Origin: Synechococcus sp.
GTDB taxonomy: Bacteria; Cyanobacteriota; Cyanobacteriia; Thermostichales; PCC-7336
Assembly (NCBI GenBank): GCA_051439605.1
Contig: JBFRWN010000076.1
Coordinates: 1 to 64,000, forward strand
Length of the DNA: 64,000 bases
Reading direction: 5' to 3'
Below, one piece after another: positions 52,953-59,174 of this stretch. The position numbers and the translations under genes were made by a program. Numbering within the stretch: position 1 is the first letter of the stretch; each line of letters opens with the position of its first letter. A model generated the notes under the pieces. It did no database searches, was not told the DNA's origin, and worked only from the letters and a program-made list of their open reading frames with translations.

Positions 52953-54209
52953 ATGAGAACCCCTCCAAAACGCAAGTACACGCGAGATAAATTCACCACC
53001 TATCTCAATATCAGCGCTCTGGAAAGTAGTGGAGCAGAGGGACCCCCTTGGTTGCGGGATGAACGGCTCAACCGCCACCTGATCCGTCACGAACAACAGC
53101 TAGCGAATCCTCAAGAACGATTTTGGGTGGTGTACTGGCACGGACAGTGGAAACAAGCGCCCCAGTCACTCTCCAAAGGCCACCTGTTGGCTTACCTGCA
53201 ATCTCCCTGTTTTTGGGCCGCCCATAGTTTTTCGCAAACCCTAGCCAAAACTCCCTATTCTGCGATCGATTGCTTTCAAATGTGCTTTGCAATTGAAGTG
53301 CGAAATCATGAATTAGGACATCGACAATCTCTTGTCGATAAAGTGCTGCACAAGTTTAATCCTGCTACCACAAATAATTTGGGAGGATACGCTCAAACCA
53401 TCTTCAAGAACGCCTTGGCCACCGAAATTTATAAGCTAACGAAACTTAAAACCTGTAACGATTGGTCGTTGCTCAATCATAAAGACATCGGAGCAGATGT
53501 CCTGAAACATGCCCTCGAGCGCGAAGGATTTCCGTCTGTCGAACGCAACCGGTTTCGTCTCATGCGTGAATGTTTCAAACTGTATTACGACGGCAACTCC
53601 CCCACCCCCCAATTATGGAAAGCTGCCGCAACCGCCTACAATCGGACTCGCATCAACCATGGCAATTGGCCTACCATTACAGCCGACGAATTGGAAGAAC
53701 AACTCCAACACTGTGCCAACGCCATTCGATCGTTTTACGCCCTATCCACACGATCGCTCGATGCCCCCGTCGGAACAGAAGCCGGTAATTCCAAAACATT
53801 AGGGGATGTGTTGGAAGATCCCCAGCACTACACTCAAGCAGAACAGATCGCCAATACAGACTTGTGGAAACAGGCTGAAAGTTTACTAGTGGGAGCCTTT
53901 AAAGACCTCCCATCAGAGAGGCAAACGCTCCTCTCCCTCAAGTACGCCAGCACTCCAAAATTGGATAACTACGCCATCGCCGATCGCCTGGGACTTGACG
54001 GCAGTCGCACCCGAAAAGGCAATAAAGTTACACAGATGCTCAAGAGTACCAAACTCAAACTGGCCAGATCCCTCCAGCCATGGGTGCAGACCCTGCAAGA
54101 CTCTGCCAACTCCCCTCTAGATGTTGTGGAAGGAGTAACCCATGCTGTCGAACTATGGCTGGAAGAATTCTTTCTTCCCCAGCCCCCCTCAGAGCCCTCG
54201 TCCGAGTAG
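52953..54209 (+). CDS. Cyanobacterial sigma70-like / HetZ-related transcription factor
   Basis: HLLAYLQSPCFWAA, KFNP...YA, DWSLL, SLDAP, and a C-terminal region-4-like HTH (LLSLKY...IADRLG). Confidence 0.75.
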   Translation: MRTPPKRKYTRDKFTTYLNISALESSGAEGPPWLRDERLNRHLIRHEQQLANPQERFWVVYWHGQWKQAPQSLSKGHLLAYLQSPCFWAAHSFSQTLAKTPYSAIDCFQMCFAIEVRNHELGHRQSLVDKVLHKFNPATTNNLGGYAQTIFKNALATEIYKLTKLKTCNDWSLLNHKDIGADVLKHALEREGFPSVERNRFRLMRECFKLYYDGNSPTPQLWKAAATAYNRTRINHGNWPTITADELEEQLQHCANAIRSFYALSTRSLDAPVGTEAGNSKTLGDVLEDPQHYTQAEQIANTDLWKQAESLLVGAFKDLPSERQTLLSLKYASTPKLDNYAIADRLGLDGSRTRKGNKVTQMLKSTKLKLARSLQPWVQTLQDSANSPLDVVEGVTHAVELWLEEFFLPQPPSEPSSE

Positions 54210-54259
54210 CCCCCATATTCGTCAGCGCACACTCAAGGCGATCGAAGAGCAACCCGACC

Positions 54260-55447
54260 ATGACCACCCCCCTCTCCAGCGAAATACTGAGTGCCTCTTC
54301 CGACCTCTGGTGGGAGATCGACCCTGATGACTGGAATAAAGCTCTGCAGGACTCTAGCCATCTCACTCCACCCGGTATTGCCCGGCAAGCCGCCCTCAAT
54401 CGTATCTTGCTTGAGCTGTTGGAACCGTGGCTCATGGAGGAACTCGACGCAGCTGTTTGCTCTTGGCCTCAAGACAATCCTCCGGACAGTGTATGGAGCG
54501 TGGTCAGCGGCACCGCTTTCGACACAGGAATGGTAAGGCTGGTGGCGATCGCCACCGAAAGCCTCGAAGCAGAGTTTCGCGTCCCTCAAGAGTGGGTCGA
54601 TATTCCCACATGGGTTGCCGATTATTATCTGCTGCTTCAGGTGGATGTAGAGGGAAGAATCGCGCGCTTGCAGGGATTCAGCACCCACCAACGGTTGAAA
54701 GAACTGGGCCAGTACGATCCGTTCGATCGCACCTATTGGCTTTCTCCCGATCGAGTGATGGAAGACATCAATGCTTTATTTCTGGCCAGAGACTTTGGTC
54801 TCGAACCCGTCACGCGAGCTGCCATCCCCCCCCTGCCTGATGTCCCGTCCCAGCAAGCGACTAATGTCCTCGAACAGCTCGCTTCCGCCGAGGTTTATTT
54901 CCCTCGGCTGGAACGTCCGTTTCACCTGTGGGGGGCTTGCCTATCCGACGCCCGGTGGCGAACGCGGCTGTACGAATCCCGCCACAACATTGCTCCCCGT
55001 TTCGCAGGTCAAATCGCCAACTTAGCCGACTGGTTTTCAGATATCCCAAACGTGCTGGCCTCCGGATGGCAAAGCATCGCAGACGCACCTGGGTCGACAG
55101 CCTTCTCGTTGCGTTCCACCGATATCGAAGCAGAAGCTGTCACGAAAGAAAAAGTCGTTCGGTTGGCAGGGGTTGATTACAGTCTCGCGGTTCATTTAGA
55201 ACCGCAAGCTGAGGGCAGAACTTTGATTCGAGCATCCGTTAAGCCCTCAGTTTCAGATACGGATTTACCGGTGGGCTTTACCTTCGACATTGTGAATGCG
55301 AGGAATGAAATCGTTCAGGCAGGAACGCCTGCAAGGGCAGGGCAATATCGCAGCGAACACACTGTCACGGTGGGGAGTGGTGTTGTTTTTGGTTTGAGGA
55401 TTTCAATAGCAGCTGAGCAACAGGAAGAATGGTTGCAAACCCCATAG
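54260..55447 (+). CDS. DUF1822 family protein
   Basis: ALNRILL, VSGTAF, VPQEWVDIPTWVADYYLLLQV, YDPFDRTY, ASGWQS; C-terminal Ig-like segment. Confidence 0.88.
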   Translation: MTTPLSSEILSASSDLWWEIDPDDWNKALQDSSHLTPPGIARQAALNRILLELLEPWLMEELDAAVCSWPQDNPPDSVWSVVSGTAFDTGMVRLVAIATESLEAEFRVPQEWVDIPTWVADYYLLLQVDVEGRIARLQGFSTHQRLKELGQYDPFDRTYWLSPDRVMEDINALFLARDFGLEPVTRAAIPPLPDVPSQQATNVLEQLASAEVYFPRLERPFHLWGACLSDARWRTRLYESRHNIAPRFAGQIANLADWFSDIPNVLASGWQSIADAPGSTAFSLRSTDIEAEAVTKEKVVRLAGVDYSLAVHLEPQAEGRTLIRASVKPSVSDTDLPVGFTFDIVNARNEIVQAGTPARAGQYRSEHTVTVGSGVVFGLRISIAAEQQEEWLQTP

Positions 55448-58094: not shown

Positions 58095-58574
58095 GAACGT
58101 TGCAATAGATAGAGTAGTGCGAAGCCAGAGATCGCTGCTGACACTCTGCAAACATTCACCAGACAACAGCGCTCTGTTGTTGAGAGTTGAGCATATCAGC
58201 ATCCTTTCCCCACTAGATATTGATGATGTAAGGGAACTACTCAAGCGACCTGTAATGCGACACTTCCTGTGCTCGGGAGCTTGCTCTGGAAGGGCATAGT
58301 GGAATCGGATTGATACAATTCCATCCATCTAGGGCAATCGTCAAGTCGTTGAGGACCTGTCAGCTATTCAGACCTCTGATGAGCATATAGCGACTGTCAA
58401 GTTGCTTAGGACATTTCAGCGACCCCATTCCCTGGTAGAGCATAGATCGCTTGTCCTAACTGAAATGTTAAGAGCTATAGGTCTATCGATCCAAGCTAAA
58501 ACTGTCCAGCTGTGAGGCAGGCAACCCTCTAAATCCGTTTTGCTTTTCCCGCTTTCCTCTAGTGGAGTCTATCC

Positions 58575-59174
58575 GTGCAAGCTCAATCTTTATTAACCGG
58601 TTTCACAGCTGCGATCGCTGCCATTGCTCATCTGGCCCTAACACTCCCTGCACAAGCCAGTGAAACCAAAATATTTTGTGGGATTCACAATGGGTATCCC
58701 ACCACAATTGTTTCCTCGCCCCAATACGAAAACTTGCCTATCATCGGTTGGACTTCGCAGTACTTTGGTCCCGAATACACACCGCAAACCCGTTGCGAGA
58801 TTGTGTCACAGCGCTTTCAAGAGTTTATGGATCGGGGAGTGTTGGTTAATCTGACAACGGGAATTCTCAATGGCTACCCTGTGATCTGTGCAACTCCAGT
58901 ACAGGGTGGAAGCTGTGATGGCAGACTGCTAATCACCCTCAAGCGAGGAGATAATTCTCGCCAGCGCTTGCAAGATATCCTCAATGTCTCAACCGGTCGG
59001 GGGGATACTATTTATGAAACTGGAGGCAGAGTCTACATTGATTTCCAGGACATGTTGCTTCAAAAAGCTGCTGACCTATCTGCAACACCCGCAGCAGAAG
59101 TACAGGCTTTACCAACTAGCGAGCAAGACCGTGGCCGAAGTGGTTTTTGCCCCGGTCCTCTTTGCAATGAATAA
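58575..59174 (+). CDS. COP23 domain secreted protein
   Basis: Signal peptide (PAQA); FC..., IIGWTSQYF, YTPQTRCEIVSQRFQ, TTGILNGYPVICA, LLITL. Confidence 0.88.
   Translation: MQAQSLLTGFTAAIAAIAHLALTLPAQASETKIFCGIHNGYPTTIVSSPQYENLPIIGWTSQYFGPEYTPQTRCEIVSQRFQEFMDRGVLVNLTTGILNGYPVICATPVQGGSCDGRLLITLKRGDNSRQRLQDILNVSTGRGDTIYETGGRVYIDFQDMLLQKAADLSATPAAEVQALPTSEQDRGRSGFCPGPLCNE

Follow-up and report, generated by a model that had tools for sequence, protein, structure and literature searches.

Cyanobacterial genes that join an EACC2 domain to a caspase and carry variable C-termini were described by Kaur, Iyer, Burroughs, and Aravind (eLife 2021, PMC8195603) beside genes for a sigma factor of the extracytoplasmic function (ECF) type and a DUF1822 protein. 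In the parts of that paper used here, the listed C-terminal forms include S/T/Y kinase and transmembrane (TM) forms, supplement rows place DUF1822 next to EACC2+CASPASE+DZR+Pkinase proteins, activation of an autopeptidase leading to transcription is proposed, and DUF1822 is called a tetratricopeptide repeat (TPR) protein. Two further systems serve for comparison. The CHAT domain of HetF cuts PatU3 at R117|S118 with a preference for Arg (PMC9457339), and HetZ belongs to the ECF sigma factors and has insertions, PatU3 cross-linking to two of these and to sigma4 (PMC13342950). In Craspase, the CHAT protease Csx29 cuts Csx30, a two-domain anti-sigma factor that binds CASP-sigma through its N-terminal part; cleavage takes place away from the binding domain and needs the C-terminal part, and its products seem to be unstable (PMC10028731). 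The present analysis concerns the four-gene locus at 52953..59174 of a 64,000-nucleotide stretch of Synechococcus sp. DNA (the window, on contig JBFRWN010000076.1, here C76), part of a 4.9-Mb cyanobacterial genome, which encodes a sigma factor, a DUF1822 protein, a CHAT protease-kinase, and a COP23-domain protein.

All four open reading frames (ORFs) picked out by an earlier, sequence-only reading of the window are present and intact, and DUF1822, CHAT, kinase, and COP23 are each confirmed by Pfam. The locus shares the gene set of the EACC2-caspase system of Kaur et al., with a catalytic dyad, a variable C-terminus (here kinase plus TM segment), and adjacent DUF1822 and sigma genes, and it is a member of this already described cyanobacterial sigma/DUF1822/EACC2-caspase family, not a new system. 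What is new here is support for a mechanism, namely a model of the sigma:DUF1822 complex, a near-invariant linker Arg in DUF1822, a likeness of its C-terminal domain to that of PatU3, and DUF1822-caspase synteny. In the passages of PMC8195603 considered, DUF1822 is given neither an anti-sigma role nor a cut site, and no connection to PatU is drawn; the words PatU, HetZ, and COP23 have no hits in its main text, and COP23 has none in 12 of its 13 supplements. The other mention of DUF1822 that was found in the literature is a listing in a variant table only. The earlier proposal, in which the CHAT domain cleaves DUF1822 as an anti-sigma factor, gains computational support, but the gene set itself was published in 2021.

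We put the probability of a caspase-gated sigma switch, taking its three core steps together, at about 0.5. The N-terminal body of DUF1822 would bind the co-encoded sigma factor and cover its −10 and −35 recognition helices, as in the model; the CHAT protease would cut DUF1822 after Arg285 in a flexible linker, probably while docked on the C-terminal Ig-like domain; and the fragment left on the sigma factor would become unstable and be broken down, so that the sigma factor is released, by analogy with what is proposed for Csx30 and PatU3. The fused kinase may tune the protease, and the trigger could come through an outer tail carrying the peptide FCPGPLC together with COP23, or from inside the cell. 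Of 110 other genomes of the class that were sampled, 63 have EACC2-caspases, with up to ten per genome; given a predicted substrate, a single residue, and a modelled interface, what was a catalogued neighbourhood now yields a specific, testable prediction.

The first gene (52953..54209; all features of the locus are on the forward strand) encodes a divergent sigma-70-family factor of 418 aa, assigned by profile, fold, and model matches. Its domains are sigma1.2/2 (aa ~5-165), a SANT/SLIDE-like helical insert (~168-267), sigma4 (~303-379), and a C-terminal helix. Regions 2 and 4 are both present, being spanned by a SigF profile match (E 2e-10), and the predicted structure, with a mean predicted local distance difference test score (pLDDT) of 83, matches the sigma2 and sigma4 folds. 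On these grounds the protein is assigned to the sigma-70 family; as a member it would form a holoenzyme and direct transcription. The second gene (54260..55447) encodes the DUF1822 protein of 395 aa, the predicted anti-sigma factor, which in the model consists of an alpha/beta sigma-binding body (aa 14-241), a disordered linker (247-289), and a C-terminal Ig-like beta-sandwich (294-393), in contrast to the TPR assignment in the passages of Kaur et al. No solved structural relative of DUF1822 was found by sequence.

Modelling of the sigma:DUF1822 pair gives a score of 0.82, compared to 0.00 for the best of three controls. Of 157 solved complexes, 116 attain the mark that the pair passes, as do 2 of 215 mismatched pairs; these figures hold only roughly with our own alignments. 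The runs share at least 58% of their contacts, with a partner pLDDT of at least 78. DUF1822 contributes only aa 5-218 to the interface, and the sigma factor contributes residues 152-165 (region 2.4 by the SigF alignment), 199-235 of the insert, where the contact is tightest, and 351-375 (the sigma4 recognition helix). From the SigF alignment and general sigma-70 anatomy, we take 152-165 and 351-375 to be the helices that read the −10 and −35 elements, so the N-terminal body of DUF1822 is modelled as covering the promoter-reading helices. The model supports a predicted sigma-DUF1822 association, and we consider it quite likely that DUF1822 binds and inhibits the sigma factor.

The candidate cut site is Arg285 of DUF1822 (AFSL-R-ST, codon at 55112..55114), as the P1 residue, which the model places in the low-confidence, disordered linker between the body and the Ig-like domain. 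The Arg285 column is invariant in a first alignment of 27 rows and is kept in 50 of 54 rows of a widened set, the four exceptions being two fragments and two HEAT-insert variants with other upstream Arg motifs. In an independent set of 54 new DUF1822 sequences, anchored on the protease, Arg is found at this position in every one. An alignment-free count finds a hydrophobic residue followed by Arg in 49 of 54 linkers, compared to a shuffle mean of 26.4 and a maximum of 37 in 2000, and the linker Arg lies 15-20 residues past a conserved Trp in 50 of the 54 proteins. The residue is similar to R117 of PatU3, after which HetF cuts, and cleavage of DUF1822 by CHAT at Arg285 is likely, in our judgment. 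In the HEAT-insert variants (L028 and L033), the Arg motif is separated from the Ig-like domain by the inserted repeats.

The third gene encodes an 859-aa protein with an EACC2-type N-terminal domain and a CHAT caspase-like peptidase (55515..56669), followed by a Ser/Thr protein kinase domain (56853..57662). The CHAT dyad, His247 (56253-56255) and Cys293 (56391-56393), and the kinase catalytic motifs are intact, as had been read from the sequence at the outset, and the dyad is kept in 63 of 64 aligned CHAT proteins. Over their whole length, residues 1-385 can be aligned with CHAT-CHASE2 proteins and with CHAT-STAND-WD40 proteins of ~1550 aa; the N-terminus is putatively assigned as EACC2+CASPASE through this alignment to architectures so listed by Kaur et al. 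rather than through an EACC2 profile. The EACC2 loop carries an Arg in one column in 51 of the 64 aligned proteins (HLSL-R here), and the conservation of this residue is compatible with autopeptidase activation. The idea that the DUF1822 Arg site and the EACC2-loop Arg vary together within a locus was suggested by the pairs SLR/SLR at the present locus and QMR/PMR at a second module of the same genome, and it was rejected on 51 pairs (mean score 5.92 compared to 5.58 permuted, p 0.26). Proteins P0016-P0020 and L173:5885-8677 combine a pseudo-CHAT domain lacking the dyad with a kinase and multiple TM segments, and they also lack the EACC2 Arg loop.

Synteny was surveyed in 36 DUF1822-anchored loci and in 60 protease-anchored regions, the latter taken around the best 62 non-self of 173 matches, with one left out and two merged. 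It is tight, as the sequence-only reading would have it: a homologous sigma gene adjoins DUF1822 in 32 of the 36 loci, and DUF1822 lies near the caspase in 54 of the 60, although the genomes are related and the counts are not independent. The C-terminal modules in the protease-anchored set are CHASE2 in 45 loci and STAND in 5, a fused kinase being found in none. A long sigma factor is present in 15 of these loci; most of the others have an upstream gene of ~220 aa instead, and 12 of the 33 such genes scanned have sigma-region Pfam hits. In two genomes of the same family (L047 and L048), what comes after the sigma-DUF1822 pair is not an EACC2-CHAT but another caspase-type protein, which bears the motifs SGHG and DACHSG and where complete (L048) is fused to STAND-WD40. 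The present genome holds the second module on contig C65 (L003:6099-12555), with a 524-aa sigma-like protein, a DUF1822 protein whose linker reads PQM-R-A, a CHAT-CHASE2 protein, and a secreted protein.

DUF1822 was also compared with PatU3. In a whole-profile comparison of the two families, alignment is confined to the C-terminal domains (P 0.004). When 106 DUF1822 C-termini are used, the C-domains score 31.9 (P 1.3e-4, probability 54%), the reversed control giving 15.5 and 30 block shuffles at most 17.9. In an Atlas feature search, the top three matches of the DUF1822 C-domain (0.78) comprise a pair of PatU clusters and a third, unnamed one, which is also the top match of the PatU query, and the PatU3 C-domain retrieves a DUF1822 cluster at rank 8 (0.81); Atlas scores under 0.9 are leads only. 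The Arg column matching PatU3 R117 is invariant in 33 PatU homologues, recognised as such by Atlas labels and by their location after HetZ. Taken together, a shared ancestry of the C-terminal Ig-like/beta domains of DUF1822 and PatU3 appears probable. However, the resemblance is confined to this domain, the N-terminal parts being unalignable, and the spacing from the Arg to the beta domain differs, at ~50 residues in PatU3 and ~10 in DUF1822. Full-length homology of the sigma family to HetZ was also considered and discarded, since only the helix-turn-helix (HTH) aligns (P 0.005).

In the parts of the HetF, PatU3, and HetZ papers considered (PMC9457339, PMC13342950), the system of Anabaena PCC 7120 resembles the present locus in that HetF is a membrane CHAT protease cutting a sigma inhibitor after Arg, PatU3 binds the insertion domains of HetZ plus sigma4, as DUF1822 is modelled on its sigma factor, and sigma factor and inhibitor are co-encoded. 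It differs in that HetF is a divisome protein encoded elsewhere, with outer TPRs and no kinase. Queries with HetZ and PatU3 by tblastn have no match in this genome, profile NF037963 has no hit for this sigma factor, and the HetF profile gives only E 8.5e-4 and 17.7 bits compared to a cut-off of 1200, so full-length similarity to HetZ, PatU3, and HetF is lacking at the locus. The earlier statement that the circuit is independent of heterocyst development thus holds for this genome, but its parts look evolutionarily linked to PatU, and the overall circuit would resemble the one that commits cells to heterocysts. PatU3-like genes are present in 88 of 151 class genomes sampled, in many families and beyond the Nostoc-type query genomes. 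No literature linking PatU to DUF1822, or the CHAT domain to CHASE2 in cyanobacteria, was found. Csx30 is likened to DUF1822 by geometry, homology between them being neither tested nor seen: N-terminal sigma binding and a distal cut are what is predicted for DUF1822. In the passages of PMC10028731 considered, Craspase differs in being triggered by RNA-bound Cas7-11, with no membrane or kinase involved.

In a broader scheme, which we regard as tentative, CHAT caspases would across cyanobacteria have DUF1822 as their general anti-sigma substrate, switched at one universal Arg, with HetF-PatU3-sigmaHetZ being a specialised offshoot that kept the C-terminal docking domain, and with the receptor in this species being gated by its private FCPGPLC disulfide loop (twice on the outer tail, once on secreted COP23). 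If the PatU link is true, the origin of the heterocyst commitment switch would be explained, and caspase-to-sigma signalling would be a general cyanobacterial pathway.

A number of observations weigh against the caspase-gated switch. An EACC2-CHAT gene lies within 8 kb in only 15 of the 36 DUF1822-anchored loci, several of which are cut by contig ends; the ten such CHAT proteins that were scanned are all CHAT-CHASE2. Two CHAT-kinase orthologues from the same genus (~65%) have no adjacent sigma or DUF1822 gene, DUF1822 being present elsewhere in their genomes. Five CHAT-kinase relatives lack the His/Cys dyad; they form one clade, and the loss of the loop counts as one event. The presence of a linker Arg is by itself weak evidence, Leu likewise occurring in 54 of 54 linkers, and aligners tend to gather residues in loose linkers. 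R285 is outside the modelled interface, so release of the sigma factor would need a second step. No experimental work on any DUF1822 system was found in the literature searched. Finally, no promoter motif common to 41 dereplicated sigma genes was found in their upstream sequences: the best dyad sought as an autoregulatory motif occurs in 7 of 41, compared to 6 in shuffles, and a scan for the sigma-70 consensus stays at chance level (7 found, 4.6 expected).

The alternative that survives best leaves the switch itself in place and concerns its input. Behind the kinase lie a single TM segment (57762..57830), preceded by basic residues, and a presumed outer tail of 87 aa (57831..58094), which is rich in Pro, Ser, and Glu and carries FCPGPLC twice (57915-57935 and 58062-58082). 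The COP23-domain protein (58575..59174) begins with a signal-peptide-like segment, with an AQA motif read from the sequence, and has a third FCPGPLC at its C-terminus (59145..59165). The COP23 copy differs from both kinase-tail copies only synonymously (6/7 and 5/7 codons), which suggests selection on the peptide, and among the 4621 long frames of the genome COP23 is the only protein sharing a 7-mer with the kinase tail. As candidate roles, this disulfide-type peptide could mimic a ligand, serve as an anchor, or tether through a disulfide. A trigger arriving from outside the cell is nevertheless doubtful, and the earlier claim that the membrane kinase senses an extracellular signal finds little backing: the seven closest full CHAT-kinase relatives (62-68%) lack a C-terminal TM segment, the two orthologues just mentioned stand alone, and COP23 occurs in 1 of the 60 protease-anchored loci, which makes it an accessory rather than a conserved member of the module. 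We give somewhat less than an even chance to an intracellular input, with the TM segment and tail only anchoring or co-localising the protein and COP23 being a recently captured neighbour with the same tag. More distant CHAT-kinases have no TM segment, or have one with a tail of ~30 aa or less, and FCPGPLC is seen only in this species cluster. On the other hand, the synonymous differences among the copies, the two Cys, which would fit a disulfide loop on the outer side of the membrane, and the outer CHASE2 sensor of most family members (45 of the 60) all speak for an outside role.

FCPGPLC was also considered as a conserved family motif and rejected. At the DNA level it has matches in 1 of 400 genomes of the phylum and 4 of 29 of the order, along with 5 metagenome stretches; it lies in real genes only in a near-identical strain, the other matches being in short frames, and it is absent from the other CHAT-kinase relatives compared. 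The peptide is a small but real oddity of the locus. At L144:7118-9178 (reverse strand), another COP23 and an adjacent trypsin-like protease share a C-terminal module of ~83 aa that contains Cys (64% identity); the protease carries it twice, giving the 1:2 ratio also seen for FCPGPLC here. This hints that COP23 tails can be shared tags, as an intracellular input would have it.

It is unlikely, in our view, that the locus is instead a conflict system of the kind proposed in the passages of PMC8195603, in which the EACC2-caspase cleaves itself and drives defence, dormancy, or death, the sigma factor and DUF1822 being a coupled output or adaptor and not a direct substrate. Such a role would accord with the conserved EACC2-loop Arg, which is lost with the loop in the five dyad-less relatives, with the highly variable C-termini, including STAND-WD40, with the orphan CHAT-kinases, and with the RTX-repeat protein and proteases that adjoin the locus. 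It leaves unexplained the near-invariant linker Arg of DUF1822 and the modelled sigma:DUF1822 interface, and PADLOC defence-system profiles have no matches for the three core proteins (sigma factor, DUF1822, and CHAT region) at E 0.01. The caspase could, moreover, cut itself as well as a substrate.

Less probable still is that DUF1822 is a chaperone or co-activator of the sigma factor, with the Arg as a binding or modification site or with a cut that turns the system off. D106 and Q109 of the sigma factor, which correspond by alignment to the portion of region 2.2 that binds the core, are not among the listed interface residues, so the sigma-DUF1822 pair might still load on polymerase, and the position of R285 away from the interface would fit as well. 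However, the modelled interface covers both promoter-reading helices, and the characterised analogues PatU3 and Csx30 are, in the passages considered, inhibitors relieved by cleavage.

A further point against the caspase-gated switch is the divergence of the sigma factor within its family; neither it nor its 73% relative P0002 has a hit to Pfam or to the curated sigma-70 hidden Markov model TIGR02937, whose cut-off is passed by five more typical relatives, and insertions are found in region 2 and, over six residues, in the HTH turn of sigma4. That this sigma copy is degenerate and the locus decaying or repurposed is very unlikely, given the intact ORFs, the retention of the same changes in a clade of relatives at 40-73%, and the confident model with sigma2 and sigma4 folds.

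An HlyC-type acyltransferase is directly followed by a 1042-aa RTX-repeat protein (window 44996-48741), no type I exporter being seen among the listed ORFs flanking this pair. Two tandem genes for trypsin-like peptidase/FGE-sulfatase proteins with N-terminal RR leader-like segments (48857-52218) lie directly upstream of the sigma gene; their products are possible targets of the switch or partners of COP23. A protein of 120 aa (52385-52747), whose start resembles a signal peptide and which falls in no Pfam family, belongs to a cluster of three members and co-occurs on the contigs of close strains. Downstream of COP23, on the same strand, follow a membrane protein, a substrate-binding+vWA protein, and a small protein (59389-62273).

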